Shown here: in pieces, positions 208-62,487 of the stretch | How positions within the stretch are numbered: the stretch's first letter is position 1 | Layout: each line of letters starts with the position of its first letter | Virus record (IMG/VR): IMGVR_UViG_3300045988_093152 | Location: 1-62,487 of that record | Strand: one strand, 5' to 3' | Origin: a virus | DNA length: 62,487 nucleotides | Position numbers and translations under genes: made by a program | Notes under the pieces: generated by a model | Database searches by the model: none | Told to the model about the DNA's origin: nothing | What the model saw: only the letters and a program-made list of their open reading frames with translations

Positions 208-237
208 CTTCCATAATAGAGATTGCTTTTTTTCGCG
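208..237 (-). promoter_or_regulatory. phage-specific promoter-like P-motif, copy 13
   Basis: Minus strand CGCGAAAAAAAGCAATCTCTATTATGGAAG (spacing +1). The real SD and ATG of the downstream gene lie about 30 nt further on. Confidence 0.5.
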
Positions 238-240
238 TCA

Positions 241-5540: not shown

Positions 5541-5544
5541 CGCC

Positions 5545-5828: not shown

Positions 5829-5857
5829 CCTCCATAAAGGAGCCTGTTATTTTCGCG
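5829..5857 (-). promoter_or_regulatory. P-motif, copy 1
   Basis: Minus strand CGCGAAAATAACAGGCTCCTTTATGGAGG. Confidence 0.55.
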
Positions 5858-6008
5858 TCTTCTCCTCAAACTTCAGAGGCTTAACCGTACCCTCCCGCGC
5901 ACACTCCGTCATGCACTCATTGCAGGGCTCGTCCGTCTCCAGCACCTTGAAGCTCTTGCACTTCGGGCAGTAGGTCGCATAATCCACTTCGCGCATCCAG
6001 TTATTCAT
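5847..6008 (-). CDS. zinc-ribbon hypothetical protein (53 aa, below the track cutoff)
   Basis: Hand translation MNNWMREVDYATYCPKCKSF...CNEC.... ATGA overlap with the upstream gene. Its 3' end overlaps P-motif 1. Confidence 0.45.
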   Translation of the reverse strand: MNNWMREVDYATYCPKCKSFKVLETDEPCNECMTECAREGTVKPLKFEEKTRK

Positions 6009-18349: not shown

Positions 18350-18389
18350 AAAACAAAAAAGTAAGAGCCGCAGATTTCTCCACGGCTCT
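18350..18389 (-). terminator. rho-independent terminator, conserved hairpin family
   Basis: AGAGCCGTGG-AGAAAT-CTGCGGCTCT plus a T-run. Confidence 0.7.
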
Positions 18390-18403
18390 CGCCTTACCTA
18401 ACA

Positions 18404-18783: not shown

Positions 18784-18812
18784 CCTCCATAAAGGAAGCT
18801 GAATTTTTCGCG
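18784..18812 (-). promoter_or_regulatory. P-motif, copy 2
   Basis: CGCGAAAAATTCAGCTTCCTTTATGGAGG. Confidence 0.55.
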
Positions 18813-18824
18813 CCTGGTCAAATA

Positions 18825-19610
18825 TCAATAGCCGCCCAGCCACTTCGGAGGCGTGTGATACTCCAGCGTCAGACAGGGCATTCCATCCTCGTCCAGCCGG
18901 GACGCATAGAAAATATCAACGTTAAGCCCCGAATCCGTGTCCCAGCCCAGCAGGTCACCGTTGACGCAGTGGTCGATGCCCAGATAGTCGAACAGATCAT
19001 TCTCGCTCACCCGGAAGTCACTGAGCAGCTGTTTGTTGACCCCATTGACGGCCTTTTCGATCATGGCCTTGGTCGTCCAGAAGTAGGTGTTGGTCAGGCT
19101 TTCCCAGCACTTCACCCGCTGGTCATAGGAAACATCGGTCGTGGCAAGGCCCTTGGCAGACTGGATGGTTGCCGGTTCGGGGCACTTGGCCATCTTTTCC
19201 AGCGCAATAGTCTCCCGGATCTCCTGTTCCTTCTCGGGGCCGATGGCCTCCAGCACCTTGTCCTGATAGGTCTTGAGCGCGCTCTCAGAAAGGGTGCACG
19301 CCGCGGCCAGTGCAGCATTCCGCCGCTCGTCCACATGGACTGCGCCAATGACACAGCCCGCAGACAGCACCATGCTCAGCGCAGTCGGCACATACACCGG
19401 GCCTGCCGTCTTGACAATGGTCTTCACGTCCAGCTTTTCCACGCCCAGCTCCTGCTTTTTCTCGTCCAGCAGGATCATAGCCTTAGGGGTCGCGGTCACA
19501 GCGAAATAGACCGCCGTAATGCTTCCCGTGATCGCCAGACCACCCAGGATCTTGGATGCGTTCTTGCCTGCGCTCCTGCGCACTGCCTTTGCAAATGTTT
19601 TCAGGTTCAT
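18825..19610 (-). CDS. two-TM protein, paralog B
   Basis: See 16707..17693. GDLLGWDTD C-terminal motif. Confidence 0.7.
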   Translation of the reverse strand: MNLKTFAKAVRRSAGKNASKILGGLAITGSITAVYFAVTATPKAMILLDEKKQELGVEKLDVKTIVKTAGPVYVPTALSMVLSAGCVIGAVHVDERRNAALAAACTLSESALKTYQDKVLEAIGPEKEQEIRETIALEKMAKCPEPATIQSAKGLATTDVSYDQRVKCWESLTNTYFWTTKAMIEKAVNGVNKQLLSDFRVSENDLFDYLGIDHCVNGDLLGWDTDSGLNVDIFYASRLDEDGMPCLTLEYHTPPKWLGGY

Positions 19611-19631
19611 GTTCGTACCTCCAAAAATTTA

Positions 19632-19666
19632 TAAAAAGAAAGAGCCTACGATTTCTCGTAAGCTCT
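19632..19666 (-). terminator. rho-independent terminator, conserved hairpin family (variant stem)
   Basis: AGAGCTTACG-AGAAAT-CGTAGGCTCT plus a T-run. Confidence 0.7.
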
Positions 19667-19672
19667 CGCCTT

Positions 19673-19897
19673 TCAGATATGTCCGTGCTGCTTCAAATTC
19701 TCGAAGCGAATTTCTGTTTCACGCTGATCATCGCGTTCCAGTTGGATCTGGTAACAGATATACTCGTACAGTCTGGTCGGCTGCTTCTTCAGATAGTGAT
19801 ACAGCCCCGTAAAGCCGTATCCTACTGAACGTGCAACTGCCTTCAGTACGCGTACCATTGCCTTGTCCATCTTTGCATAATAGTCGTGATCGTACAT
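19673..19897 (-). CDS. hypothetical protein
   Basis: ATG at 19897 in the context GGGGATTGATATTTATG. Confidence 0.5.
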   Translation of the reverse strand: MYDHDYYAKMDKAMVRVLKAVARSVGYGFTGLYHYLKKQPTRLYEYICYQIQLERDDQRETEIRFENLKQHGHI

Positions 19898-19934
19898 AAA
19901 TATCAATCCCCTTTGTTTGTCAGTTTGGATACCT

Positions 19935-19963
19935 CTTCCATAAGGGAGACTGTATTTTTCGCG
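19935..19963 (-). promoter_or_regulatory. P-motif, copy 3
   Basis: CGCGAAAAATACAGTCTCCCTTATGGAAG. Confidence 0.55.
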
Positions 19964-19964
19964 T

Positions 19965-20129
19965 TTACAGGTTCTTTTCCGCAAGCTGACGCTGAACTTC
20001 CTCCCGCACCATGTCCTGCATTTCCTCTTCGCTGCGCTGCTCCTCGATCAGGTCGTGGCCAAAGCTCAGGATTGCGCTTGCAGCCATCATTGCCACGGAT
20101 GCAACTTTCCACCAATTGATCTTCTTCAT
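19965..20129 (-). CDS. small membrane protein (54 aa, below the track cutoff)
   Basis: GGAGACTGATATTTTATG; MKKINWWKVASVAMMAASAILSFGHDLIEEQRSEEEM... Confidence 0.5.
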   Translation of the reverse strand: MKKINWWKVASVAMMAASAILSFGHDLIEEQRSEEEMQDMVREEVQRQLAEKNL

Positions 20130-20154
20130 AAAATATCAGTCTCCTTTTCAAAAT

Positions 20155-20964
20155 TCAAAACGGTTCCCGTCTGGTCGGGTCGTAATCCAGATACTCTTTG
20201 ATCGGCTCCTGGAATGCTGTCACATAGTACACTTCCAGTCCATCATCCGTTGTCTGCCGGGCATAGTTGAAGTCGATCCAGTAATATTCCCACTCGTTGC
20301 TCAGATACTCCGCGCACCAGCCCAGCATATCTCCTTCCGGTATAAAGTCCAGTCCGGGCAGGAAGGAGTAGAAGTCATTCAGCGAGACTTCTCCATTCAA
20401 CGCAAAGTTCCGGTTCACGTTGTAGAAGGCATCCATCAGCTCCGTTTCCGTTGCATGGAAATATCTTTTTGAGATAGGCTCGTAACAGAGCAGCTTTTCT
20501 TCGTCTGTGCCTGCCGGGGTGGGGGTCTCCAGAACATCCTGCGTGTCCTTGTAAATATCTTTTTCTTCTTCCACGCCGATCCGCTCTGCCACCTGCCTGC
20601 GATACTCCTGATAGGTCTTTCCCAGCGCCATATACGCCGCGGTCAGGCCTGCGATCTGCTTTTTGTTCAGCGCGTTGGAGCCCAGGATGCAGGCAATGGT
20701 ACCGCTGCCAAGAATCGCAGCCGGAACGTATGCTTTCCAGCACATCTGAACAATTTGTTTCTTTGTCGGAGGCTCTTCTGTCACTCCAAACTCGTTTTCG
20801 TTGAACTTTGTCAGCTCCTTGTCAACTTCAAGTATATGCTGCGCCTTCGTAGTCGCCCGCCCGGTCTCGATGGCCGTTGCCACCACGCCTACAGATGCCG
20901 CCACCGCCAGAATAGTCCCGCCGTGCTTGCGCAGGAATTTCGCGCATGTTTTCGTCAGTTTCAT
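20155..20964 (-). CDS. two-TM protein, paralog C
   Basis: See 16707..17693. GDMLGWCAEY motif. Confidence 0.7.
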   Translation of the reverse strand: MKLTKTCAKFLRKHGGTILAVAASVGVVATAIETGRATTKAQHILEVDKELTKFNENEFGVTEEPPTKKQIVQMCWKAYVPAAILGSGTIACILGSNALNKKQIAGLTAAYMALGKTYQEYRRQVAERIGVEEEKDIYKDTQDVLETPTPAGTDEEKLLCYEPISKRYFHATETELMDAFYNVNRNFALNGEVSLNDFYSFLPGLDFIPEGDMLGWCAEYLSNEWEYYWIDFNYARQTTDDGLEVYYVTAFQEPIKEYLDYDPTRREPF

Positions 20965-20990
20965 TGTTCAACCTCCCATCACAAAATGAT

Positions 20991-21191
20991 TTAGCCATAG
21001 AGAATCTCGTAAAGCCGATTGGATGCGCTCAGATAGTTTTCATAAATATCTGCGTCCGCACACATGCTCATGTAGTCCTCCGCGTTTTCCACCTTGGAAT
21101 AGACCTGCTCAAGGTTTTCTTTGAGCGCCTGAAGTTCGCTCTTCATTGCCGGGTCCGTGCAGCGCTGAACGATGTCATCCATTGTTTTCAT
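20991..21191 (-). CDS. hypothetical protein
   Basis: 66-aa ORF. Upstream context is TTCAAAATGGAGG-N9-ATG. Confidence 0.55.
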   Translation of the reverse strand: MKTMDDIVQRCTDPAMKSELQALKENLEQVYSKVENAEDYMSMCADADIYENYLSASNRLYEILYG

Positions 21192-21211
21192 GATGTTTAA
21201 CCTCCATTTTG

Positions 21212-21246
21212 AAAAAAGAAAGAGCCGCAGATTTCTCCACGGCTCT
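21212..21246 (-). terminator. rho-independent terminator, conserved hairpin family
   Basis: AGAGCCGTGG-AGAAAT-CTGCGGCTCT plus a T-run. Confidence 0.7.
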
Positions 21247-21267
21247 AGCTTTAATGATTAGCTCGTA

Positions 21268-21486
21268 TTAACGTTCCATAAAGTCCGTATCTACTAAATC
21301 ATATTCCACATCATGGTCGTTGGAATTGCCGATAAATATCGAAAACGCCTTATCAAGGTCGGTAAAGTCGCACACTGCAATTTCATTATTTTTGAATGCA
21401 GGTGAGCCAACCAGTGCCTCGCACATGCGATCACGAAATTTAGCCATTTCCTCAGGATTTTTGCATTTGATGTTCAAAACGATCAT
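21268..21486 (-). CDS. hypothetical protein
   Basis: ATG at 21486 after TTGGAGG. Confidence 0.55.
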   Translation of the reverse strand: MIVLNIKCKNPEEMAKFRDRMCEALVGSPAFKNNEIAVCDFTDLDKAFSIFIGNSNDHDVEYDLVDTDFMER

Positions 21487-21523
21487 AGTTTCGTACCTCC
21501 AAAATATAATTCTGAGACTGATC

Positions 21524-21552
21524 ATCTCATAAAGCACCATGAAAATTTCGCG
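21524..21552 (-). promoter_or_regulatory. P-motif, copy 11
   Basis: CGCGAAATTTTCATGGTGCTTTATGAGAT. Confidence 0.5.
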
Positions 21553-21777
21553 TCAGATCACATCAGCCTTCTTGAGAATATCCATCAGCTGCGCCTTGGT
21601 CATCTCTGCATCCACTACAAGATGGATTTTCAACTTCTGCTCTTTTTCGCTCCAGTTCGCCTGAACCTCGCCCAGCTGTACCTCTGTACCGGGTAACTGC
21701 TTTTTCAGTATCTTGTTGATGACCTGCGAGATGATGCGGCGCAGAAAACTCGACCGAATCAGCATAATGTCCTCCAT
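21553..21777 (-). CDS. hypothetical protein
   Basis: 74-aa ORF, TTGGAGG SD. Confidence 0.55.
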   Translation of the reverse strand: MEDIMLIRSSFLRRIISQVINKILKKQLPGTEVQLGEVQANWSEKEQKLKIHLVVDAEMTKAQLMDILKKADVI

Positions 21778-21806
21778 AATCGTTCAACCTCCAAAAATAA
21801 AAATGA

Positions 21807-21876
21807 AAAAGAGAATGGGCCTCGAACCCATAACCTCCACAATAAAGTGGCGCTCTACCATTTGAGCTATCTCCTC
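21807..21876 (-). tRNA. tRNA-like gene with canonical acceptor, D- and T-arms but a shortened, non-canonical anticodon arm (identity not assignable)
   Basis: GAGGAGA-TA-GCTC-AAATGGTA-GAGC-G-CCAC-TTTATT-GTGG-AGGTT-ATGGG-TTCGAGG-CCCAT-TCTCTTT. There are 20 nt where a normal tRNA has 22-23. Its 5' end lies inside P-motif 4 and a T-run follows. Confidence 0.55.
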
Positions 21877-21901
21877 CATAAGGGAACATGAATTTTTCGC
21901 G
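21873..21901 (-). promoter_or_regulatory. P-motif, copy 4 (drives the tRNA-like gene)
   Basis: CGCGAAAAATTCATGTTCCCTTATGGAGG. Confidence 0.55.
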
Positions 21902-21902
21902 T

Positions 21903-22127
21903 TTACTTGATTCTTTTGACCGTCACTGTATATTCAAGCTTCATAGGATTGCCGGAAGCATCTTTACAAGAGAAAACATTACCAGTAAAACTAAGCTGGG
22001 CAGTGGAATTTTTACACAGGATATTCATTACAGTTCTATCTTTAAGTACTGCAATTTTGAAAATATCTGCGAGTTTTTCAAAATCATTCATAATACGATT
22101 AGCCTCGAACATATTTGCATTTGACAT
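21903..22127 (-). CDS. hypothetical protein
   Basis: 74-aa ORF, GGGAGG SD. Confidence 0.55.
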   Translation of the reverse strand: MSNANMFEANRIMNDFEKLADIFKIAVLKDRTVMNILCKNSTAQLSFTGNVFSCKDASGNPMKLEYTVTVKRIK

Positions 22128-22154
22128 AGTTACTACCTCCCATATTGTGGTTTA

Positions 22155-22189
22155 CAAAAATAAAGAGCCTACGATTTCTCGTAAGCTCT
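22155..22189 (-). terminator. rho-independent terminator, conserved hairpin family (variant stem)
   Basis: AGAGCTTACG-AGAAAT-CGTAGGCTCT plus a T-run. Confidence 0.7.
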
Positions 22190-22199
22190 TCTCTTTGGC

Positions 22200-22481
22200 T
22201 TATCGCCAATCAGGATGTTTCTTCAATGTAGCTAAATATTTGCATTGTGCTTCCTTAAGATACAATTCTTTGTAATATGCTTTCCATTCCGTGTGAATAT
22301 CATCCGGAAATACAATATCGTTTTCTTCAATAACATCAAGCATAATCTCGATTTGCTTTTTCTTTTCATCTCGGATTTTTATTCCGTTATCAAACTTCTT
22401 TATTGTATCTCTTGATAGTCCAGTCATTTCAACCATATGACAAAGAAATATATTCCTTTGTTCTTTCAGCTCTTTCAGCAT
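22200..22481 (-). CDS. putative helix-turn-helix DNA-binding protein
   Basis: ATG at 22481 after GAGGTG. FLCHMVEMTGLSRDTIKKFDNG resembles an XRE-type HTH. Confidence 0.5.
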   Translation of the reverse strand: MLKELKEQRNIFLCHMVEMTGLSRDTIKKFDNGIKIRDEKKKQIEIMLDVIEENDIVFPDDIHTEWKAYYKELYLKEAQCKYLATLKKHPDWR

Positions 22482-22488
22482 ACATATC

Positions 22489-22517
22489 ACCTCATAAAGT
22501 AAGGAGAATTTTTCGCG
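22489..22517 (-). promoter_or_regulatory. P-motif, copy 5
   Basis: CGCGAAAAATTCTCCTTACTTTATGAGGT. Confidence 0.5.
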
Positions 22518-22524
22518 TTTGGGC

Positions 22525-22559
22525 AAAAAGAAAAGAGCCTACGATCTCTCGTAAGCTCT
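22525..22559 (-). terminator. rho-independent terminator, conserved hairpin family (variant)
   Basis: AGAGCTTACG-AGAGAT-CGTAGGCTCT plus a T-run. Confidence 0.7.
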
Positions 22560-22564
22560 CTTAC

Positions 22565-22804
22565 TCATTTAGTGAAAACCGTTATGATTTCTTTATCTTC
22601 GTCGAAATGCTTCATAAGTTCATTGAATTCTTTTTCGCTGCAATGCGCATCAAATATAAAACTTGTAACACCTGTGTGCTTATTTTCAAAGTAACCATAC
22701 CGCTCAATATAAGCGCCCAGTTGTTTTGCTTCTTCTTTGATTCGTTCGCCGCAGCATGCCCTGCAATGAACTCTGAAATACTTTTCAACGTTAATAAGTA
22801 CCAT
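22565..22804 (-). CDS. hypothetical CxxC protein
   Basis: 79-aa ORF. The GGAGG of P-motif 6 serves as its SD. Confidence 0.55.
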   Translation of the reverse strand: MVLINVEKYFRVHCRACCGERIKEEAKQLGAYIERYGYFENKHTGVTSFIFDAHCSEKEFNELMKHFDEDKEIITVFTK

Positions 22805-22958
22805 TCTTAATCACCTCCATAATATAAGCTGATTTTATCGCGTTTATTCTTTGTTTCTCTCTGGCTAACCAGGCAAGATAGTCATTGGTTTCGAGCTCCG
22901 CTGTATCATGTGCTTCATGTTTTTCAATTATTATAGTTCCATCATTATGCTCGTGCAT
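22791..22958 (-). CDS. hypothetical protein (55 aa, below the track cutoff)
   Basis: AAAGGAGAAATATT-ATG; MHEHNDGTIIIEKHEAHDTAELETNDYLAWLAREKQ.... Its 3' end spans P-motif 6. Confidence 0.4.
   Translation of the reverse strand: MHEHNDGTIIIEKHEAHDTAELETNDYLAWLAREKQRINAIKSAYIMEVIKNGTY
22814..22842 (-). promoter_or_regulatory. P-motif, copy 6
   Basis: CGCGATAAAATCAGCTTATATTATGGAGG. Confidence 0.5.
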
Positions 22959-22973
22959 AATATTTCTCCTTTG

Positions 22974-23336
22974 TCAGATCAAACTCCGATCAAACACGGT
23001 TTCCCAGCGTTCTTTCTTGAGGGGCTTCATGCGCAGTGCCCACATGATCTGCCGTACGGTCACAGTCGGGTACTCGCCCTTTGCGTTTTTCTTCTTGGCG
23101 TGACTATCAAAATATTGCCGGAACCCTTCATGCAAATAGATCTTGTCGGTCAGCCAGGGGTCAATGGCGCTCCAGTAAGTAGCCTTGGTTTTCTCGTTGT
23201 ACCGCTGCTGGATCACGCACAGGCCTTTCCCCTGTTCCCGGTAGAGCGTGCAGACACGGTACACCGGGTGATTGCACCGGTAAACGCTCCCGTAATAGCT
23301 CGTCCACTCTTTTGGCGGTATGTCGTGATATCTCAT
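22974..23336 (-). CDS. hypothetical protein (start uncertain; no SD before ATG 23336)
   Basis: ORF track 22974..23432. The region upstream of 23336 forms the terminator hairpin. Confidence 0.5.
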   Translation of the reverse strand: MRYHDIPPKEWTSYYGSVYRCNHPVYRVCTLYREQGKGLCVIQQRYNEKTKATYWSAIDPWLTDKIYLHEGFRQYFDSHAKKKNAKGEYPTVTVRQIMWALRMKPLKKERWETVFDRSLI

Positions 23337-23374
23337 AAAAAATAAAGAGAGCCCGCAGCTTTCGCCACGAACTC
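23337..23374 (-). terminator. rho-independent terminator (10-bp stem, CGAAAG loop variant)
   Basis: GAGTTCGTGG-CGAAAG-CTGCGGGCTC plus TCTTTATTTTTT. Confidence 0.55.
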
Positions 23375-23388
23375 CCTCGGTTCCTCCT

Positions 23389-23793
23389 TTACTTTCTATC
23401 CGTAAAGCCTCTCTTGATCTCATGGAGACCATCGTTCATTGCTCTGGAAAGCGGCGCTACACCGCCAGCCTCGCAGATCGACCAGTATACCGTCGTGCCA
23501 ATCGTTCCCAAAAACGTCAGGCAGCTGATGCCAAACTTCGCCCACTCAATGCGCCGTGCCTTCGCAGCCTTCTCCTGATCGTTGATGACCTCCTGGCCCT
23601 TCCGCCGTTCCTCATCCTCTTTCAGGTTCTGGTCGCTCTCCTGCGCCTCGCTCTTGATTTGCATCTCGTACAGCTGCAATGCCGCCTTCGCTGTCTTTTC
23701 GTAATCCTCCGTACCCGGTTCCAGATCCTTCAGCTTGGCGAGCGATTGCTTTGCCGCTTCCTTCAGCAATTCTTTGTTTTCATAGTTTTCCAT
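23389..23793 (-). CDS. coiled-coil protein with C-terminal TM segment
   Basis: ATG at 23793 within GGAGAAAATCAAAATGGAA. TM segment FGISCLTFLGTIGTTVYW. Confidence 0.55.
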   Translation of the reverse strand: MENYENKELLKEAAKQSLAKLKDLEPGTEDYEKTAKAALQLYEMQIKSEAQESDQNLKEDEERRKGQEVINDQEKAAKARRIEWAKFGISCLTFLGTIGTTVYWSICEAGGVAPLSRAMNDGLHEIKRGFTDRK

Positions 23794-23828
23794 TTTGATT
23801 TTCTCCTTTACAAAGTAATTTAGAGTTT

Positions 23829-23857
23829 CCTCCATTAAGCACCATGTTTTTCTCGCG
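23829..23857 (-). promoter_or_regulatory. P-motif, copy 7
   Basis: CGCGAGAAAAACATGGTGCTTAATGGAGG. Confidence 0.5.
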
Positions 23858-24089
23858 TCAGGTCCAGCTTGTGCACCCGCAGTATGATGTACTTGTCGCC
23901 TTCAAAATTCTTCACCTCCTCATCCAGGCTCAGGCTCAGGTAGGGCCAGTCCGGGTTATCTTCATCGCCGATCAACAGCTCGCCCACCTCGTAAATATCA
24001 CGGTAATGGAACCAGCGGTAGAGTGCCATCCCGAAAAGTAGGCCCAGAATGATAGCAGCGAATAGGACAGCGTAGTAGATGTACAGCAT
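23835..24089 (-). CDS. small membrane protein
   Basis: N-terminal TM segment YAVLFAAIILGLLFGMALY, AAGGAG SD. Confidence 0.55.
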   Translation of the reverse strand: MLYIYYAVLFAAIILGLLFGMALYRWFHYRDIYEVGELLIGDEDNPDWPYLSLSLDEEVKNFEGDKYIILRVHKLDLTREKHGA

Positions 24090-24143
24090 TTTGATTTTCT
24101 CCTTTTTAATAATGTAGTTGATAAAACGGTCTTCTGCGTGATG

Positions 24144-24177
24144 AAAAATAAAGAGCCTACGATTTCTCGTAAGCTCT
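24144..24177 (-). terminator. rho-independent terminator, conserved hairpin family (variant stem)
   Basis: AGAGCTTACG-AGAAAT-CGTAGGCTCT plus a T-run. Confidence 0.7.
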
Positions 24178-24184
24178 CTACACC

Positions 24185-24418
24185 TTAGATGTCGTTGCGA
24201 ATCAGGAATAAGTCACCACGGCTGCAAGTAGCCCGTACAATTCCATTCGCCCGAATCAACGCAATCGCATTGGCGTAAGCTCCGCGTGCTGTCTGAGCGC
24301 TCTTATACTCGCCTGTATCAATGTACATAACTTTCTGATTGCTCTCAATAAACACCCGGATCTTATCCATCGCGTTCACATAGCCTCGGTCGTAATTTAC
24401 CTTTACTCGTTTGCCCAT
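24185..24418 (-). CDS. hypothetical protein
   Basis: 77-aa ORF, AAAGGAG SD. Confidence 0.55.
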   Translation of the reverse strand: MGKRVKVNYDRGYVNAMDKIRVFIESNQKVMYIDTGEYKSAQTARGAYANAIALIRANGIVRATCSRGDLFLIRNDI

Positions 24419-24454
24419 AATTTCAATCTCCTTTATTCATATTCGGAAGACATC

Positions 24455-24483
24455 CTTCCGTAAAGCACAAAGAAAATTTCGCG
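24455..24483 (-). promoter_or_regulatory. P-motif, copy 8
   Basis: CGCGAAATTTTCTTTGTGCTTTACGGAAG. Confidence 0.45.
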
Positions 24484-24497
24484 TTGAATCGTAACAG

Positions 24498-24513
24498 TCT
24501 ATTCTAGAATAGA
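24498..24513. promoter_or_regulatory. perfect 16-bp palindrome, operator-like
   Basis: TCTATTCTAGAATAGA. A CTAGAATAGA half-site recurs at 25749..25758 over the int promoter. Confidence 0.4.
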
Positions 24514-24544
24514 AAAAGAAAAGAGCTCAAGTTTCCTTGAGCCC
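24514..24544 (-). terminator. rho-independent terminator
   Basis: GGGCTCAAG-GAAA-CTTGAGCTC plus TTTTCTTTTT. Confidence 0.65.
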
Positions 24545-24563
24545 GTTTTCCGGTCAGAATCCA

Positions 24564-24710
24564 TTAGCGGATACCACACCGAACATCGTTCAGCATGAGG
24601 AATTCTTCGCCCTCATTCCAACCCGCATACTTGTCGTTGGACGATTCGTTAAATGCGGTCATAATAGAGTTCATCATTTCCTCAAAACCTTCAACAATAT
24701 TCTTCAGCAT
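24564..24710 (-). CDS. hypothetical acidic protein (48 aa, below the track cutoff)
   Basis: TAGGAGGTATTTACT-ATG; MLKNIVEGFEEMMNSIMTAFNESSNDKYAGWNEGEEF... Confidence 0.45.
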   Translation of the reverse strand: MLKNIVEGFEEMMNSIMTAFNESSNDKYAGWNEGEEFLMLNDVRCGIR

Positions 24711-24738
24711 AGTAAATACCTCCTAAAATTTGTTATTT

Positions 24739-24768
24739 CTTTCCATAATAGAAGGTGTATTTTTTCGC
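24739..24768 (-). promoter_or_regulatory. P-motif, copy 9
   Basis: CGCGAAAAAATACACCTTCTATTATGGAAA (spacing +1). Confidence 0.5.
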
Positions 24769-24772
24769 GCCG

Positions 24773-24925
24773 GAAAATAAAAAAGAAGAATGCTTGAGTT
24801 TTCAATCCCAAGTCATTGGATGAGTACCGTTTATTTTATGGAACGTTTCATTCCGTACTCGCATCGATGCCTATTTAAGTTGTCACAACTACCAATTATT
24901 CATTGGCTGACCAACACCCTTTATT
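24773..24925 (-). ncRNA. candidate non-coding RNA (P-motif-driven unit with no credible ORF)
   Basis: About 150 nt between P-motif 10 and a T-run. Only ORFs of 20 codons or fewer, none with an SD. Several local hairpins (CCAAT/ATTGG, GTTG/CAAC, GCATCGATGC, GGAA/TTCC). Confidence 0.35.
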
Positions 24926-24954
24926 CTTCCATAAAGGACCATGTATTTTTCGCG
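24926..24954 (-). promoter_or_regulatory. P-motif, copy 10
   Basis: CGCGAAAAATACATGGTCCTTTATGGAAG. Confidence 0.55.
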
Positions 24955-25365
24955 TCATCCACGCTCAATACTCAATGTCCAGAAGAATTTGCGGTATTGC
25001 TCATAATAACTTTCTCGGCAGCAGGGGCAGCCATGAATTCGCAGCACATCATACGGAACACATTCCGTCGCTCCTTTTAATACATAGGGTGCGATTGCCG
25101 GAGAAATATCTTTCAAGCAGTGTTCTATAAGGCTAATCCGCTTGCTGAAGAATGCCCTGGCAATGGCGGTCTGTTCTGTGGGGTTCGATTCACGGCTTCC
25201 TTTGACAGTATACGTCCGAAGTTCTTCTGGTTTTGCTTTCCAGGCATCCAGCATGACCAAGGCATCTTTCCATTCAGGATACTGCAAGCAGAAATGTTTA
25301 AGCTCATAGTATCGGTGCTTTGAAATATAATACGGATTCTTTTCAGATAGTTCAACGTGTGCCAT
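24955..25365 (-). CDS. putative ArpU/RinA/sigma-region-4-like transcription regulator
   Basis: ATG at 25365 after GGAGGGG. YYELKHFCLQYPEWK...PTEQTAIARAF...CCRESYYEQYRKFFWTLS resembles small phage late-activator/sigma-like proteins (from memory). Confidence 0.45.
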   Translation of the reverse strand: MAHVELSEKNPYYISKHRYYELKHFCLQYPEWKDALVMLDAWKAKPEELRTYTVKGSRESNPTEQTAIARAFFSKRISLIEHCLKDISPAIAPYVLKGATECVPYDVLRIHGCPCCRESYYEQYRKFFWTLSIERG

Positions 25366-34537: not shown

Positions 34538-34568
34538 TGATATTCTCAACCTCCTCCATTTTGAGCCC

Positions 34569-55655: not shown

Positions 55656-55756
55656 ACTCATTTCCTCCACTGGATATCAGACTTTCTTCTTTACATACAA
55701 CATACGGATTGATATACTTATCTCAAACGGTATTTCTTATACTTCGGAGGCAATAT

Positions 55757-56102: not shown

Positions 56103-56246
56103 TTATTCATGTTTTATCCATGGGCAGGTGTCGCCCGGTCTTCTTTCTCCGTCCGGCAGCTTCGGGCCCTTCCCCGTTCCGTAATGGATCACCTTGTGCG
56201 TTGCCGCCGAAACACAAATGGCGTTCTCCGGGTCAAGCAGCTTTTC
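56103..56246 (-). pseudogene. start-less remnant of an HNH endonuclease 3' end
   Basis: Encodes EKLLDPENAICVSAATHKVIHYGTG..PDGER.PGDTCPW, near-identical to the C-terminus of 56833..57291. No start codon; follows the GNAT stop directly in frame. Confidence 0.7.
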
Positions 56247-56831: not shown

Positions 56832-56832
56832 T

Positions 56833-57291
56833 TTATTTCCTCCATGGGCAGGTGTCGCCCGGCTTCCGTTCACCATCCGGCATATTTTTATTTTGACCGG
56901 TGCCATAATGGATCACCTTGTGCGTTGCCGCCGAAACACAAATGGCGTTCTCCGGATCAAGCAGTTTTTCGCTGTGCTGGAGAACGTCATTTTTTGTTAT
57001 GGGGTTTATGTGGTGGATGGAGATCTTCGGTCGGATCGGCCTTCCGTCCCGCAGCACCCAGTCTGTGATCGGATGGTCTTTGCACCCCAGGTCGCATCCC
57101 ATGTCCCGGGCGATGATTCTGTCCCTGAACTGCCGCCACTCTCTCGATTGGTAGAAGTCCTGGTTCAGCCATCGGTCAAACCCGAAGGTGTCCTTCCCCA
57201 CCTCACCGTGCAGCTGTAAATATTCCAGCCGCTCTTCATAGGTCGGCAGGGTGCATAGTTCTGTGTAGCTTTTCATAAGCGCTTTCATCAC
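56833..57291 (-). CDS. HNH endonuclease (packaging-associated)
   Basis: ISIHHINPITKNDV...NAICVSAATHKVIH, located in the terminase region. Confidence 0.8.
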   Translation of the reverse strand: MMKALMKSYTELCTLPTYEERLEYLQLHGEVGKDTFGFDRWLNQDFYQSREWRQFRDRIIARDMGCDLGCKDHPITDWVLRDGRPIRPKISIHHINPITKNDVLQHSEKLLDPENAICVSAATHKVIHYGTGQNKNMPDGERKPGDTCPWRK

Positions 57292-57918: not shown

Positions 57919-58331
57919 TGCAATAACCTCGTTTCACATTCTTATTTTGCTTTTGCAAGGGTTCATGGGAGTCGCAGTAGTACCAGTTAAGCCTGTCTCA
58001 TTTGAAAGGAGAAGAAAAAGCAGATCATGCCCAATGGAGGTTGAACATCACGAAAGCCCTGAACCCAAACATATAGGAGGATACTACTCCCATGAGCCCT
58101 TGCAAAAACCGCCGAAGTCCCGGTCTACACCCCAGAACCTCGGCAATTTCCCATATGACTGTAAATCTTAACACCTGCTGTGGATACAGGCATCGAGAGT
58201 TTACACAAATATAATCGGCAGCTTTCACTGTCGGAGCCTTAAAGCCCAAATATCAATTTTCCCTCCGGGGAAATATCACAGACCGGCGCGATTTGAGAGG
58301 GGGTGCCGATTTTGAGACCCCTCCCTATGGT
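57919..58331. other. long non-coding region upstream of the packaging genes (candidate cos/pac or late control region)
   Basis: No SD-preceded ORF. G/C-rich hairpin GAGGGG...CCCCTC near 58290..58325. Confidence 0.3.
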
Positions 58332-58601
58332 TTACGCAGTTTGGCCTAGCGTATCTTCGTCAGATACATTGATTTTGAGCTTTTTGTAAATGTTTATTGG
58401 ATCAGCAGCAACAATCTTGTCGATTGCTTTCTCAATTTCATAGGCATTTTCGTTGTCCGTGAACTGAGAGGAGGTCTCGGCGATCCTCATAAGCAAACCA
58501 GAAGAGTTGTAGCCATGATCAACGTCATATTGGTACCACTTTTCAAACTCCTCATACGGACTGTACGGGTTGTCAAAGGTGGTAAGAAAGCATCGAACCA
58601 T
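58332..58601 (-). CDS. hypothetical protein
   Basis: 89-aa ORF, AAAGAGG SD. Confidence 0.55.
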   Translation of the reverse strand: MVRCFLTTFDNPYSPYEEFEKWYQYDVDHGYNSSGLLMRIAETSSQFTDNENAYEIEKAIDKIVAADPINIYKKLKINVSDEDTLGQTA

Positions 58602-58629: not shown

Positions 58630-61401
58630 TTACTTATTGAGTGCACTATAAACAGTAGATTCAGGAATGCCACAAGCCTTTGCGATTTCGGCATAAGAAT
58701 AACCGCTTCGCAGCATTGCACTTGCTTTGGATATCTTTGCAGAAGTCATAACAGTTGCATTCTTTGGCATTGCACGCTTCACAATTTCATCAGAATCAGA
58801 CGAATTAAGGAATTTCGTCAGCATGTTGTCTGAAATTGCACCAGCTTGAACAGCTTCCCATTCCTTATCCGTGAAGGTGACCTTGGATCTGCGTCCGCTT
58901 GCACCAACTGAATCACGAGCACGCTGCATTTCGACAGAAGAGATTTTCTTAATCTCTTTTTTATCTTCTGTAATGTTGGGGTTCAAACCTTGCTCTTGAA
59001 TCTTTGCCTTAATATTAGCATTAGCAATTAGCATCGCCTTGCGTTCTTTGGGTTTATTGGCGATCATATTTGCATACTTAGCTTTCAGCGAAGCTACTTC
59101 AGGGGCATACTTTTTAGCAGCTTCAGCACTGTATTCGAGTCCTTTCATATTAACAGCTTCTTTTCGAGCTTGAGCGGCCATGGCCTTCAGCTTATTAGAG
59201 AAGTCCGCATATAGGTTCTCTTGAACAGTGCCAGAAGACAGAGTTCGAGCATCTTTCGTTTCGGAAATCAGGCTGACAGTATCCTCCGCTAGACGCTTCT
59301 TGCCGCTTTTGGGGTCAGTGAATGTCCGTCCGCTCTCCTTGTAAATATACTCACCGGTCTCCTTGTCTATGCGGACACTGCCACGACGCTCCGGCACTCG
59401 TACTGTCTGCTTACGCCGGGACAGCAGCGTGGATGCACCACCATACTTAGTGTTTCCTTCTTCGTCAACACGAATCTGCCACTTCTGCTTCAGCTCGGGG
59501 ATGCCATTCTCGCGCTCAGAACGCTTATAGTCCAGCTTATGCTTTTCTGCATCGATAACGACCATAGAGTGCTTAACCGCACGTGCAAGCTCGTCCTCAT
59601 CGGCACCTCGCAATGTCATATCAGTGATGAGGTTGGAGATCACGCCCATTTCGCGCTGCTTCTCCTCTTTCTTCATCAGCCTGACATTGTTCGGATTGCC
59701 TTCAGGAACTGCATAAGCAGTCTTAGGATCGAATTCTTCGAGTGCTTTCAATGCACGGGTGGACTTGATGTTGACCTTGTCGGTAACAGGAATCGCCATA
59801 ACCGTGTCGCCATCGAAGTCTGCGCCCGAAAGCCGCTCTGCAACCTTTGCATTGATGCCGATTGCATCCTGAATTGCACCGAGATTCCGCTTGCCGCTGA
59901 CGTTCTTGTTGTTGACGGTCACGATAGGAATCTCGAAGGTGCCTGCATGAGGATAGCGAATCAGTGCAAGTCTGGTGCCATTCTCATAAGTAGGACAATA
60001 AGCCTCTGTCTCCTTGATCTTATTGATCGGCAGGATAACCTTCGTGGACTGGCCCGGGAATGCAGATGCCTTCAGGGTCATGGACGTTCCTTCAACCGTA
60101 TCAGCAAAATCGTTGAGCAGCTTCTTTTTGACCGTAGGACTATCGTACCGCATGATCTCATCATATTGGGCTTTGTAATCCGCAACAGTAAGGTTAAGCT
60201 GGTTCTCGATCAGCTTTTTAGGCTGCTTGGAAAGGAACTGAGAAGAGACGTTCCGAGACATCGTATCCCAGTCGCCTTCCTCCTTCAGCTTATTGATCGG
60301 CGAGAGGTGCTCTTTGCCATCGTCACCGATGTACATGCTCTGGCCGTTAGCCTTGATAGCTGCGCCAAACGGGTTGTCAGGATCAGCTTTTGCTTCCTTA
60401 AGGACCTTCATCTTGGGCGTGCCGGAAGGCTTGTTGGTGTTAAACATAACGTCCACACCATCCGGCAGGTCATCAGAATAGACTGCCATACCTTTCAGAT
60501 AATGGTCTCCGTCAACGAGGATACGAACCTGCGCATAATGGCTCTTGCCCAGATCGAGGTCAGGAACACCACGGCGAATCTCCATAACGCCGTCTTTATC
60601 CAGGCCGCCTTCGTCGCCATAGCGAATCGCAACACGATTGGAATCCAGACTTGCAGGACGCTGAAGCTTCGTAAAGGTCTCGCCGCCGTCATCAGAATGG
60701 TAATCGCCCAGAGAATCGATCTGATCCTGATGCTGGTAAGCATACTTCTGGTCAAACTCAGGCTTCGCAAGAACTGTAATGTTCGTTTGCTGGCGAGGAT
60801 TGGTAGGCTGCTTGATGCCCACACCGTAGCGCTTATAGCCATATTCGGCCTCTAACTTGTATGCGGCCTCATCCAACTCCGTTTGAGTTATTCCTAAAAC
60901 AGAATTTGCTCCTTCAGAAATGTCAATTATACCTTTTTTATCGACTTCAGCCTTCAATGTATTTGCGATATTTACAGCACGTTGTTCTTTTTTACTAATG
61001 TTGCCATTATATTTAGAGCGAACACTAGATTCGCTCATCCCTAGTTTATCACCAATTTCTTTCCATCCAAGACCATCTTCTTTTAGAGCACGAATCTTGT
61101 CGTACTCCAATGCTTGGCGTTCATGTGTAGCCGTCCGCTGAGCTACTCTAAACTCTGTAAGCCCCATTTTATATTCATCGGGAAGAGAATTATTGATAGT
61201 TTCCAGAATATCTTTTTCAGAGAGGCCTTTCTTTTTTAATTCTTTCACCCGGGACAAAAAATCACCAGAATGCTGATACGGATTATCACCAGAGCCCCAG
61301 GGATAACGCCCGGAATGGCGTTTCGTACCGTAATGCTCCAGAATATTACTTTCAGAGGTAATGCCAAAATAAGAACGAAGGTCTTTTTCAATCGGGTTCA
61401 T
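58630..61401 (-). CDS. YonO / QDE-1-like two-barrel (double-psi beta-barrel) RNA polymerase homolog with terminal HTH-like regions
   Basis: HYLKGMAVY...VMFNTNK. LALIRYPHAGTFEI, then about 39 aa, then LSGADFDGDTVMAIPV (compare beta-prime NADFDGDQMAVH). HSMVVIDAEKHKLDY. C-terminal GYSYAEIAKACGIPESTVYSAL. Confidence 0.65.
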   Translation of the reverse strand: MNPIEKDLRSYFGITSESNILEHYGTKRHSGRYPWGSGDNPYQHSGDFLSRVKELKKKGLSEKDILETINNSLPDEYKMGLTEFRVAQRTATHERQALEYDKIRALKEDGLGWKEIGDKLGMSESSVRSKYNGNISKKEQRAVNIANTLKAEVDKKGIIDISEGANSVLGITQTELDEAAYKLEAEYGYKRYGVGIKQPTNPRQQTNITVLAKPEFDQKYAYQHQDQIDSLGDYHSDDGGETFTKLQRPASLDSNRVAIRYGDEGGLDKDGVMEIRRGVPDLDLGKSHYAQVRILVDGDHYLKGMAVYSDDLPDGVDVMFNTNKPSGTPKMKVLKEAKADPDNPFGAAIKANGQSMYIGDDGKEHLSPINKLKEEGDWDTMSRNVSSQFLSKQPKKLIENQLNLTVADYKAQYDEIMRYDSPTVKKKLLNDFADTVEGTSMTLKASAFPGQSTKVILPINKIKETEAYCPTYENGTRLALIRYPHAGTFEIPIVTVNNKNVSGKRNLGAIQDAIGINAKVAERLSGADFDGDTVMAIPVTDKVNIKSTRALKALEEFDPKTAYAVPEGNPNNVRLMKKEEKQREMGVISNLITDMTLRGADEDELARAVKHSMVVIDAEKHKLDYKRSERENGIPELKQKWQIRVDEEGNTKYGGASTLLSRRKQTVRVPERRGSVRIDKETGEYIYKESGRTFTDPKSGKKRLAEDTVSLISETKDARTLSSGTVQENLYADFSNKLKAMAAQARKEAVNMKGLEYSAEAAKKYAPEVASLKAKYANMIANKPKERKAMLIANANIKAKIQEQGLNPNITEDKKEIKKISSVEMQRARDSVGASGRRSKVTFTDKEWEAVQAGAISDNMLTKFLNSSDSDEIVKRAMPKNATVMTSAKISKASAMLRSGYSYAEIAKACGIPESTVYSALNK

Positions 61402-61958
61402 GCTGCCACTCCTAACAAAATATCAGTGATAATCGGATCAAACTCTTTGATTTTAGCAATGATCGGATTGATTTCATCTTCAGTAGGATTCTCGATCCAG
61501 ATTTCATCGTTCTGGTAGATACGGGTTTCTATCCGAATATCTTTCGGGTCGTATCCGTACTCCAGACAGAAAAGAGCGGCATAAATATAGAGCTGCTCCA
61601 TGTGTGCAGGAACAGCTCCAGTTTTGAGATCGTGAATGCGAAGGAAACCGTCGTTGAATGTAATTGCATCTGCGGTTCCGAAGCAGTTGTCGCTATAATA
61701 GAGGACTTGTTCAGTATCCATGCGGAAGCCAATGGCATCATTCACATAGGTATTTAATGTCTTTTTGCTCTTTGGCAACTTTTGCTTAAGAGCAATGCAC
61801 TCAGCTGCAAACGCGTGCAGGCGGGTTCCTCGTTCTTTCGCCTGATAATTAAGAACGGCATTGGTCAGCCTATCTGCATCATAGTTTAACCAATGATAGT
61901 TACTTGCTCCGAGGAGGGCATGTTTCCCCGTGAGCCTCGAATGATCTCGCCAGTTCAT
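61398..61958 (-). CDS. PD-(D/E)XK nuclease (Cas4/RecB/YqaJ-like exonuclease)
   Basis: GTADAITFNDGFLRIHDLKTG (D...D/ExK core). ATG at 61958 after AAGGAGG. Confidence 0.55.
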   Translation of the reverse strand: MNWRDHSRLTGKHALLGASNYHWLNYDADRLTNAVLNYQAKERGTRLHAFAAECIALKQKLPKSKKTLNTYVNDAIGFRMDTEQVLYYSDNCFGTADAITFNDGFLRIHDLKTGAVPAHMEQLYIYAALFCLEYGYDPKDIRIETRIYQNDEIWIENPTEDEINPIIAKIKEFDPIITDILLGVAA

Positions 61959-62220
61959 TAAGAACTTCCTCCTTGTTTTCAGGATAGATAAAGGAAGCAA
62001 AACTCATCTCGTCCATTTGCCGAACATAATAGTCCTGATTTGGACGATGAGATGCAGTCGCTGACTTCTTGCCTTCCAGTGCGCCCCAGGTTTTACCATA
62101 AAGAACTAAGAGATCGGGAATACCCTGAATCTCCGTAGGATCTAAATGGACAACCTTACAGCCTGGAAAGCGTTCTTTCAGTTCCTTTACCAATCCTGTC
62201 TTGAATTTATTTTCGAGCAT
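61900..62220 (-). CDS. VRR-NUC / PD-(D/E)XK-type nuclease
   Basis: ATG at 62220 after TTGGAGG. GIPDLLVLYGKTWGALEGK (PD...ExK). Confidence 0.55.
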   Translation of the reverse strand: MLENKFKTGLVKELKERFPGCKVVHLDPTEIQGIPDLLVLYGKTWGALEGKKSATASHRPNQDYYVRQMDEMSFASFIYPENKEEVLNELARSFEAHGETCPPRSK

Positions 62221-62273: not shown

Positions 62274-62302
62274 CTCCCATAAAAGGGGATGTTTTTCTCG
62301 CG
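62274..62302 (-). promoter_or_regulatory. P-motif, copy 12 (heads the nuclease / RNA-polymerase-like operon)
   Basis: CGCGAGAAAAACATCCCCTTTTATGGGAG. The real SD and ATG lie about 45 nt downstream. Confidence 0.55.
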
Positions 62303-62361
62303 TGAGTTTTTAGGAAATAATGTGAATTTTTAGGAATTTTTGAGAAAACAGAGCAAAAGAA

Positions 62362-62395
62362 AAAGCCCCTGCGTTTTTCGCGCAAGGGCTTTTAA
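62362..62395 (-). terminator. rho-independent terminator
   Basis: AAAAGCCCTTGCG-CGAAAAA-CGCAGGGGCTTTTT. Confidence 0.7.
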
Positions 62396-62399
62396 AAAT

Positions 62400-62487
62400 T
62401 TACAACTTATCCACTTTTTCAAGCTGTCGATAAGCTTGCATAATGTGCTGTATTGTCTCGTTTGAAATTCCGCTCCAAGTCATAGCC
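62400..62487 (-). CDS. C-terminal part of the junction-spanning gene (see 1..174)
   Basis: Same frame through the 55-bp overlap, TAA at 62400..62402. Confidence 0.6.
   Translation of the reverse strand, partial: AMTWSGISNETIQHIMQAYRQLEKVDKL

Follow-up and report, generated by a model that had tools for sequence, protein, structure and literature searches.

A predicted single-chain two-barrel RNA polymerase with fused DNA-binding modules and a candidate promoter element in an FP_oengus-like temperate phage

The ancestor of all cellular RNA polymerases (RNAPs) is believed to have looked much like the single-chain two-barrel enzymes. To our knowledge, only a few of these have been characterized, namely YonO, QDE-1, crAss gp66, and, from Thermus phages, gp64 and gp96. 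YonO is an active phage DNA-dependent RNAP that transcribes the SPbeta late operon from a single promoter, and its promoter recognition is an open question (Forrest et al., 2017; PMC5467207). A protein of phage 1706 was placed among five YonO-like families sharing eight invariant active-site residues (Ruprich-Robert and Thuriaux, 2010; PMC2919709). For the ortholog in Faecalibacterium phage FP_oengus, an HHpred match to the Pfam family RdRP (probability 95.7%), helix-turn-helix (HTH) domains at both termini and a DxDGD loop were described (Koert et al., 2021; bioRxiv 10.1101/842583). The same authors reported a conserved block of helicase, HNH, RecB exonuclease, RNAP, and a small protein, with the RNAP as a signature gene of an Actinobacteria-Firmicutes phage group (Koert et al., bioRxiv 10.1101/842583). 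The subject of this study is the corresponding gene in a viral genome of 62,487 nucleotides (IMG/VR record IMGVR_UViG_3300045988_093152; this whole stretch of DNA is called the window below). The prediction from fold, motifs, and family is that the gene (58630..61401, minus strand) almost certainly specifies a phage-encoded RNAP of the two-barrel type, made of a single protein with built-in DNA-binding modules. This interpretation is correct but already published and annotated for a close ortholog; new here are a promoter-like element found in phages of two host phyla, its geometry relative to a tRNA-like gene, and a hint of virion association.

The open reading frame (ORF) listing of the window contains a single ATG-initiated ORF at 58630..61401, encoding 923 amino acids (aa), in agreement with a preliminary description of this locus made from the sequence alone. 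Over nearly its full length the protein matches phrog_4291, a family labelled 'RNA-dependent RNA polymerase' (E=0, 1200 bits, residues 15-922 aligned to profile positions 6-906 of 909). Searches by tblastn found it in 250 phage records, 249 of which cover at least 80% of the query. The closest match was FP_oengus AUV56548.1 (86% identity), annotated 'putative RNA polymerase'. Matches at 36-45% identity came from about 245 actinobacteriophages and 13 Lactococcus phages, where the proteins are mostly named 'helix-turn-helix DNA-binding domain protein'. More than 8000 clusters at 90% identity were obtained from large protein collections, mostly from Faecalibacterium prophages on contigs of up to 3 Mb. 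In two of three large homolog searches, near-identical prophage copies from Faecalibacterium filled the results, and diversity was obtained with a profile without Faecalibacterium sequences. The catalytic core alone matched at least 691 clusters at 50% identity (E<=1e-30), all of ~900-1000 aa with the core at ~230-750.

All four motif blocks quoted in the preliminary description are present in the translation, in the order given there. The block DHYLKGMAVY is followed over the next 11 residues by SDDLPDGVDVM, which overlaps the start of the following block, VMFNTNK; further on are LALIRYPHAGTFEI (residues 478-491), LSGADFDGDTVMAIPV (residues 524-539), and HSMVVIDAEKHKLDY (residues 611-625). 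The blocks were already invariant in an alignment of the window protein with seven full-length homologs (37-86% identity) from Faecalibacterium, Lactococcus, Rhodococcus, Gordonia, and Streptomyces phages and from two uncultured phages associated with humans. The comparison was then widened to an alignment of 50 sequences, 47 of which share <80% identity among themselves and ~45% with the window protein. Invariant in these 50 sequences are K303 and G304; N321, T322, N323, and K324; R482, P484, H485, and G487; S525-D532 (SGADFDGD); and H611, S612, D617, K620, and H621. Because they are invariant across 50 diverse homologs, the motif blocks are not chance strings.

Several of these residues occupy positions typical of the superfamily. 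The metal loop D528-F-D530-G-D532 (59806-59820, within the second barrel) is invariant in 50/50 sequences and was aligned by hhalign to the DNDGD loop of YonO. R482 and P484, likewise invariant, precede D528 by 46 residues; an R-x-P about 45 residues ahead of DxDxD is a trait of the superfamily (Rpb1 R446/P448; QDE-1 R962/P964) and belongs to the eight invariant residues (PMC2919709). The beta-like barrel of the superfamily carries one acidic and two basic invariant residues (QDE-1 D709, R738, and K743; PMC2919709). In the window family, the candidates for these residues, D270, R293, and K303 (together with K324), are invariant in 50 sequences, and their match to YonO D249, R266, and K271 was made by eye only.

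The domains of the protein, all given here with coordinates on the minus strand, follow the order HTH, catalytic core, HTH. The first double-psi beta-barrel (beta-like, residues 257-373, 60283..60633) was assigned from the beta-strand pattern of the AlphaFold2 (AF2) model and from the invariant positions D270-G271, R293, K303-G304, and NTNK321-324; by eye, these blocks match YonO D249-G250, R266, K271-G272, and TKSQFK. The second barrel (beta-prime-like, residues 452-538, 59788..60048) comprises R482-x-P484-H485 and the metal loop, and was assigned from invariant columns and from hhalign against YonO. A helical region follows (residues 578-641, 59479..59670; model helices 578-597 and 602-621), in which the invariant motifs MGxISNLITDMT and HSMVVIDAEKHKL match IGEYSNNIT and IDFAK of the YonO family at identical spacing. 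Within the core (~residues 250-640), the beta-like barrel thus precedes the beta-prime-like barrel, the same order as in QDE-1 and YonO.

HTH-like segments at both ends had also been claimed in the preliminary description, and Pfam matches bear them out. At the C-terminus, a sigma-70 region-4.2-like HTH (residues 887-922, 58636..58743) is covered by PF08281 Sigma70_r4_2 at residues 900-921 (E 3.5e-10, 39.8 bits against a cutoff of 25.7) and by HTH_23 (E 1.7e-9). At the N-terminus, a sigma-70 region-4-like HTH (residues 108-129, 61015..61080) is matched by PF04545 Sigma70_r4 (E 4.1e-5), marginally at 23.5 bits against a cutoff of 24.1, as well as by HTH_AsnC-type and GerE models; a weak lambda-cI-like match at residues 101-155 came from the PDB sequence search. 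Pfam found the HTH domains in 48-50 of the 50 family members. Ahead of the first HTH lies the peptide HYGxxRxSGRYPWGSG (residues 23-38, 61288..61335), in which H23, G25, and S30-G38 are invariant in 50 sequences. It is predicted to be disordered, with a predicted local distance difference test score (pLDDT) <50 over residues 7-44, and is a candidate interaction or targeting motif.

The name that most records carry would make the protein mainly an HTH DNA-binding regulator with a barrel core that is catalytically dead or structural (SEA-PHAGES/NCBI), and the HTH domains alone do pass curated Pfam/NCBIfam thresholds. A dead enzyme, however, would not hold SGADFDGD, RxPH, KG, NTNK, and GxxSN/IDxxK invariant over ~55% divergence and two host phyla, and the polymerase core accounts for ~500 of the 923 residues. 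We therefore consider a non-catalytic regulator extremely improbable.

Evidence for the fold came from structure prediction. The full-length AF2 model reached a pLDDT of 76.8 and a core-only model (residues 240-725) a pLDDT of 75.3, with beta-rich modules at residues 257-373 and 452-538. When the full model was compared with the PDB by Foldseek, the eleven best matches were QDE-1 and RDR2 (E 4e-7 to 2e-4, probability 1.0), followed by beta-prime/Rpb1 subunits. The core-only model added the crystal structures of two Thermus phage single-chain RNAPs, P74-26 gp62 (E 4.5e-7) and P23-45 gp64 (E 2.8e-6). Further matches of this model were the AR9 non-virion RNAP (E 1.8e-3), Pol III, Pol IV, and crAss phi14:2 gp66 (weak, E 0.12). 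Matches in BFVD included crAss proteins. Every Foldseek match with E<=1e-3 was a two-barrel RNAP, and no primase, structural protein, or other fold over the DFDGD region appeared among the matches of the full and core models. The single-chain two-barrel RNAP proposed in the preliminary description is thereby upheld, and no unrelated fold displaces it. Among the relatives named there, QDE-1 was recovered with probability 1.0, gp66 weakly (E 0.12), and the profile link to YonO stayed sub-threshold (hhalign probability 17%). The fold link needed structure prediction, since PDB sequence searches with the protein or an 8-sequence profile returned HTH proteins only and no polymerase. No NCBIfam model covering the core was found.

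Four points weigh against this assignment. The Pfam family RdRP (PF05183) matched residues 519-623 only, at 14.0 bits against a cutoff of 23.8 (E 0.02); template modelling (TM) scores to solved structures were modest (0.3-0.4); the profile link to YonO is likewise sub-threshold; and a literature search found no published experimental study of the PHROG 4291 family. Similar weak RdRP matches at the DFDGD region were given by 43 of 50 family members (best E 0.0012). The interpretation as an RNAP is nevertheless supported at the level of fold, motifs, and family, from which we infer catalytic activity, DNA template, and promoter specificity.

The same results bear on the template. An RNA-dependent RNA polymerase copying RNA templates, for example into double-stranded RNA or regulatory antisense RNA, would fit the best structural matches (QDE-1 and RDR2), the weak Pfam RdRP match, and the database names. 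That name, however, was inherited from Pfam PF05183 and not from experiments. YonO, with the same motif set, and gp64 and gp62 are DNA-dependent RNAPs, and QDE-1 also uses DNA templates (PMC9508822). The two fused DNA-binding HTHs, the double-stranded DNA genome of the phage, and the promoter-like elements described below point to DNA templates, and the PHROG annotation of the neighbourhood contained no RNA-silencing partner genes. An RNA-copying enzyme is thus very improbable. A DNA-dependent, self-targeting transcriptase is the best-supported reading, with catalysis as a prediction, and the database names 'RNA-dependent RNA polymerase' and 'HTH DNA-binding protein' are likely both misleading.

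For the comparison with YonO, the protein was taken from the SPbeta record and a six-member YonO-family alignment was built. Seven to eight invariant blocks are collinear by eye between the two families, with near-identical spacing from RxPH onward. In order, and with the YonO family named first, these are DG and DG, VR...KG and VR...KG, IFTKSQFK and MFNTNK, YQMLQ and SQFLS, RSPH and RYPH, FDNDGD and ADFDGD, IGEYSNNIT and MGVISNLIT, and IDFAK and IDAEK. Alignment of the window family profile to the six-member YonO profile by hhalign covered barrel 2 only (81 columns, E 0.0014, probability 17%), in a register that placed residues 458-540 on YonO 469-546 with RxPH and DxDGD aligned. Against the single YonO sequence, the family profile gave no match (probability 2.7%), and the 40 records matched by YonO in tblastn do not include the PHROG 4291 family. 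Membership in the YonO family was rejected, the hhalign result being marginal and limited to barrel 2. By sequence comparison, the window protein is placed in a separate family within the 'YonO-like' assemblage.

A position weight matrix (PWM) scan of the window revealed an element of ~30 nt, ACGCGAAAAAT-N9-CTTTATG-GAGG, in 13 copies, all of them intergenic and on the coding strand of the early/middle region (13 forward, 0 reverse). None was found on the opposite strand or in the late region, and CGCGAAAAA was seen 8 times against 0.89 expected. All copies lie on the minus strand. The copy at 62274..62303, ACGCGAGAAAAACATCCCCTTTTATG|GGAGG (PWM score 41.1), stands upstream of the VRR-NUC/Cas4/RNAP operon, with a predicted +1 at G 62277. 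Nine copies are located within 18784..24955, the first C of CGCG being at 24954, 24769, 24483, 23857, 22842, 22517, 21552, 19963, and 18812. Two further copies are at 5829..5858 (CGCG at 5857, score 48.7) and 209..238 (CGCG at 237, score 26.0). A tRNA-like gene has its 5' end directly at the AT-rich hexamer CTTATG (21882-21877) of the remaining copy (21873..21902), a junction that also exists in FP_oengus.

The tRNA-like gene (21807..21876, minus strand; Rfam RF00005, 48.6 bits) has a 6-nt anticodon loop, UUUAUU in the window and UUGAUU in FP_oengus (2935-3006 of that genome), and ARAGORN reported an odd, unassignable anticodon. It may act as an unusual decoder or be a structural RNA of tRNA-like shape. 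The gene starts, in the window as in FP_oengus, at the G immediately after the hexamer, and in several other element copies the GGAGG after the hexamer is a ribosome-binding site. Because the tRNA-like gene begins at this G and GGAGG serves as ribosome site, transcription should start at or before the G. Such a start fits the promoters of single-chain phage RNAPs, in which an AT-rich block abuts the +1, and fits poorly with a sigma-70 -10. Across the four regions scanned, matches to the sigma-70 consensus were about as frequent as expected by chance.

An analogous oriented, multi-copy element was present at the start of the early region in every RNAP-encoding lineage examined, among phages of both Firmicutes and Actinobacteria. 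Forward and reverse copies numbered 10/0 in FP_oengus, 6/0 in Streptomyces phage RosaAsantewaa, 8/0 in Lactococcus phage 1706, 9/0 in Gordonia phage Secretariat, and 4/0 in Arthrobacter phage KeaneyLin; in Caudovirus D_HF4_2, a repeat-family search found ~9 copies, all forward, and the pattern search gave 0. The patterns were derived for each genome from observed sites, so that the chance expectations show specificity and strand bias, not independent discovery. The common layout is CGC[A/G], 5-6 nt, (T)ACA, ~5 nt, an AT-rich hexamer, and then GAGA. The last copy lies upstream of the nuclease-RNAP block in the window, in FP_oengus (27684), in D_HF4_2 (32631), and in KeaneyLin (41902-41920). No relevant publication came up in a literature search for the element sequences.

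Since the architecture of the element is kept while the proteins are only ~45% identical and the hosts belong to two phyla, recognition by a conserved phage-encoded factor is indicated, and the RNAP is the only conserved transcription-type protein of the phage group (Koert et al., bioRxiv 10.1101/842583). A precedent exists in P23-45: the motif used by its virion RNAP is present in 14 copies, and relatives without the enzyme lack it. We therefore tentatively put forward the ~30-nt element as a candidate cognate promoter of the phage RNAP, a sequence-based assignment to which we give slightly less than an even chance. The enzyme would find its promoters on the double-stranded phage DNA itself, independently of a host sigma factor, and transcription would start at the G following the AT-rich hexamer. 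Expression of the nuclease-RNAP operon would be driven from the last copy (62303-62274). As no strong terminator follows, transcripts begun there could, after circularization of the genome, continue across the cos junction and into the ~29-kb late operon. Firing of the early promoters would require an enzyme delivered with the virion, or priming by a little host transcription.

Regarding delivery, the record of phage 1706 (EU081845) labels orf62, orf71, and orf75 as 'structural protein', all encoded outside the morphogenesis module, and most other ORFs as 'unknown'. RefSeq later renamed orf75, the RNAP ortholog, 'RNA-dependent RNA polymerase'. The original label hints at a possible association of the enzyme with the virion, as a polymerase of early genes would require. 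Taken with the element and its junction with the tRNA-like gene, it suggests a self-sufficient polymerase with its own promoter, possibly virion-delivered.

Early transcription could, alternatively, be left to the host. In such a YonO-style scheme, host RNAP with SigA would read the early elements as -10-type promoters and make the phage RNAP, which would then start at a single, different promoter in the gap at 58332-57918 and processively transcribe the ~29-kb packaging, structural, and lysis operon as a late transcriptase. YonO, the only characterized phage homolog at this gene position, works in this way, with a single promoter adjacent to yonO; in all relatives the RNAP gene stands last ahead of the late genes, and the late region has few terminators. 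Two blocks of the gap are more conserved than coding DNA; the gap is, however, the physical genome end in relatives with cos, which alone suffices to explain the conservation, and no promoter-like motif common to the lineages was identified in it. The geometry of the element likewise argues against host recognition. In the window and FP_oengus, the hexamer (T/C)TTATG does not have the -11A and -7T that mark a -10 for SigA; with a start 7 nt downstream, the tRNA-like gene would be cut short and the GGAGG ribosome site lost; and the distance from the first box of the element (box 1) to the hexamer, 14 nt from TTCGCA, is unfit for a -35/-10 pair. Host recognition would also leave the conservation of box 1 and ACA across two phyla unexplained. 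We regard this scheme as a viable alternative, though less likely than not.

Other findings count against phage-encoded recognition and delivery. The hexamer of the actinophages is a perfect TATAAT, usable by host SigA as a -10-only promoter, and the terminators that close the early units are of the classical hairpin-plus-U type, which suits host RNAP; both features also favour the YonO-style scheme. As the operon of the RNAP itself carries the element, a first source of enzyme is needed, and because the phage is temperate, prophage induction cannot rely on virion-borne enzyme. In the window, AAAAAT inside box 1 could act as a weak -10, and the tRNA leader would then be trimmed by RNase P. Finally, the label of orf75 as 'structural protein' is second-hand. 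On balance, we lean towards a single-chain RNAP of the 1706/FP_oengus type that is predicted to find its own double-stranded DNA promoters. The more detailed picture is less likely than not: a self-sufficient RNAP of temperate and lytic siphoviruses infecting Gram-positive bacteria, with sigma-region-4-like HTHs and a ~30-bp bipartite promoter conserved across Firmicutes and Actinobacteria phages, packaged into the virion and injected to fire the early genes in at least some members, and with read-through into the late genes.

The genomic setting was examined in the window and its relatives. Bases 1-55 are identical to 62433-62487, and owing to this exact 55-bp terminal overlap the window represents a circular assembly (62,432 bp) cut at an arbitrary point. 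The phage is an FP_oengus-like temperate siphovirus, reversed and permuted relative to the published FP_oengus record. Its temperate nature is evident from an integrase gene (25787-27007) and from prophage copies in Faecalibacterium chromosomes. The preliminary description had placed the RNAP gene at the head of a leftward transcription stream, directly upstream of the packaging and structural genes. The first part is an artefact of linearization, as nuclease genes on the same strand lie upstream; the second part holds, the RNAP operon being the last before those genes.

The nuclease-RNAP operon (all features on the minus strand) begins with a VRR-NUC-like endonuclease gene at 61900..62220, with a probable start at ATG 62220 (phrog_93, E 3e-13). 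The phrog_93 match spans residues 52-151 of the long ORF, and VRR-Nuc is found at the same position in RosaAsantewaa and KeaneyLin. Next is a Cas4/RecB-like PD-(D/E)XK exonuclease gene (61398..62000; phrog_3953, E 1e-75; Pfam DUF2800 and PDDEXK_1), a neighbour that is the same in the relatives. Its stop codon overlaps the start codon of the RNAP gene (ATGA), which places both in the same operon. Immediately downstream of the RNAP lies an 89-aa partner gene (58332..58601; phrog_4303, E 1e-31), and a small gene directly follows the RNAP also in P078, ReqiPepy6, Secretariat, RosaAsantewaa, D_HF4_2, 1706, and KeaneyLin. The order conserved in relatives is VRR-NUC, Cas4-like exonuclease, RNAP, small gene, and then the genome end (cos) and the late genes. 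In phage 1706, lysin genes are inserted between exonuclease and RNAP, and the 449-bp gap before its RNAP gene contains a perfect 36-nt direct repeat, CTATCACGAAAAAACTTCGGGAAAACTTCGGGATTG, twice (43637-43672 and 43776-43811, 139 nt apart).

This neighbourhood raises the question of a replication enzyme, that is, a two-barrel primase or a DNA polymerase with PolD-like chemistry that acts with the neighbouring helicase and nucleases. The gene closes a replication/recombination module beside helicase, HNH, VRR-NUC, and Cas4-like genes, and PolD shows that the fold can make DNA. The phage, however, already has a 1334-aa primase-polymerase (phrog_4210, primase-type matches), PolD was absent from the Foldseek matches, and the closest solved relatives are all RNA polymerases. 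We give a role in DNA synthesis hardly any credence.

Upstream of the operon, a strong intrinsic terminator with a 13-bp stem and a T-run (62361..62393, minus strand) closes the preceding unit, and the element copy at 62303-62274 sits between this terminator (62393-62361) and the nuclease-RNAP operon. Several other element copies directly follow members of a hairpin-terminator family. These related intrinsic terminators, at 5514-5541, 8765-8780, 18363-18390, 19640-19667, 21221-21246, 22162-22191, 22531-22562, and 24148-24181 (minus strand), share a loop region in which GAGAAAUC is conserved, and their stems come in two compensatory variants, GAGCCGUGG...CUGCGGCUC and GAGCUUACG...CGUAGGCUC. The family splits the early region into many single-gene units, and analogous hairpins precede the elements of D_HF4_2 (CCTATACACC...GGTGTATAGG). 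Two paralogs of phrog_2152 (261 and 269 aa; 18825-19610 and 20155-20964, minus strand) lie ~0.5 kb apart (19611-20154), each with a promoter-like element ahead of it.

Downstream of the operon, the gap contains two conserved non-coding blocks on the minus strand. The first (58239..58331), right after the phrog_4303 stop, is ~97% identical to FP_oengus, compared with ~83% genome-wide, and the second (58089..58145) is ~90% identical. The blocks, within 58089-58331, are better conserved with FP_oengus than coding DNA, and an 87-nt insertion separates them in the window. The conserved gap is structured (z = -3.2), matched no Rfam family, and corresponds to the position at which the physical genome end of the relatives falls, after the small gene. 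At this junction of RNAP and late genes, it is probably a cos region, a late promoter, or a non-coding RNA. Strong terminators number three in the ~30-kb late region versus ten in the 20-kb early region; such a terminator-poor late region would be in keeping with a processive polymerase dedicated to the late genes, or else with read-through from the last element across the joined cos.

Some further features of the late side were recorded. A 207-aa protein encoded at 56283-56906 (minus strand) combines a GNAT acetyltransferase domain with an N-terminal DUF7211 motif (YHHGIKGQKWGVRRF) that faintly resembles the N-terminal peptide of the RNAP; the comparison of the two gave sub-threshold half-motif matches in 2/6 orthologs. 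Direct repeats of ~135 bp (56112-56246 and 56836-56970, 83-93% identical) flank the GNAT gene and duplicate the 3' end of the HNH gene, and the GNAT gene looks like a cassette insertion between HNH and terminase. In the cargo region upstream of the terminase, a 203-aa ORF (55059-55670, minus strand) contains the Acb2/Tad1 hairpin domain PF24729 (27.4 bits) and is a candidate anti-CBASS or anti-Thoeris nucleotide sponge. In the tail region, an array of 21-nt periodic repeats (33891-34375) with a heptad-like pattern lies inside a 415-aa minus-strand ORF (33302-34549) and probably encodes a fibre or collagen-like segment.

Human gut data contain thousands of Faecalibacterium prophage copies of this very large and usually mis-annotated family, which is unique in joining sigma-like DNA-binding modules to a minimal catalytic core. 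With one protein and one 30-bp candidate promoter, it offers a compact system for studying how a minimal two-barrel enzyme finds and opens promoters, and the phage RNAP with its element is a possible orthogonal expression tool for Gram-positive bacteria.

Among known systems, N4 virion RNAP is a virion-packaged transcriber of early genes but a T7-like right-hand polymerase. CrAss phi14:2 gp66, likewise packaged in the virion and transcribing early genes, adopts the two-barrel fold; it comprises 2180 aa and is weakly similar to the window protein. A functional analogy to gp66 and N4 virion RNAP is possible if the 'structural protein' label in 1706 reflects real packaging. QDE-1 of Neurospora and plant RDR2 (PDB 2J7N, 7Y7Q-T, 7W82, and 7EU1) are the best structural matches, with the same barrel order and a DxDGD loop, at 10-14% identity and TM 0.3-0.4; they are RNA-silencing enzymes without HTH, acting as dimers or Pol IV partners. 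The non-virion RNAPs P23-45 gp64 and P74-26 gp62 (PDB 8F72 and 8F5M) are single-chain phage two-barrel enzymes with the highest target-normalized TM (0.33). They differ from the window protein in their size of ~590 aa, the absence of a fused HTH and of detectable sequence similarity, the Thermus host, and their genome organization and promoter motifs. In the Thermus phages, phage-specific multi-copy promoter motifs track the presence of the enzyme, and P23-45 gp96 is a virion RNAP fused to the tape measure protein.

YonO and the window protein are alike as single chains of ~100 kDa with a beta-like barrel before a beta-prime-like barrel. YonO has a Cys4 zinc-ribbon-like C-terminal tail and no HTH, whereas the window protein has sigma-region-4-like HTHs at both ends and the invariant N-terminal peptide. 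The SPbeta enzyme works from a single late promoter and is not known to occur in virions. Like the window RNAP gene, yonO lies just upstream of a late operon, that of SPbeta with terminase and portal. With this, and with the FP_oengus ortholog annotated 'putative RNA polymerase' in the same context, the view in the preliminary description that no such enzyme had been characterized in this genome context does not stand. The closest systems are FP_oengus AUV56548.1, Lactococcus phage 1706 ORF75, and the actinophage orthologs, which belong to the same family (86% and 37-45% identity, respectively, over the full length). Compared with FP_oengus, the phage of the window is slightly larger (62.4 kb) and temperate, and ~83% identical over only about half of the early region. 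All these orthologs share the HTH-core-HTH architecture and synteny with the window, and differ in nothing essential.

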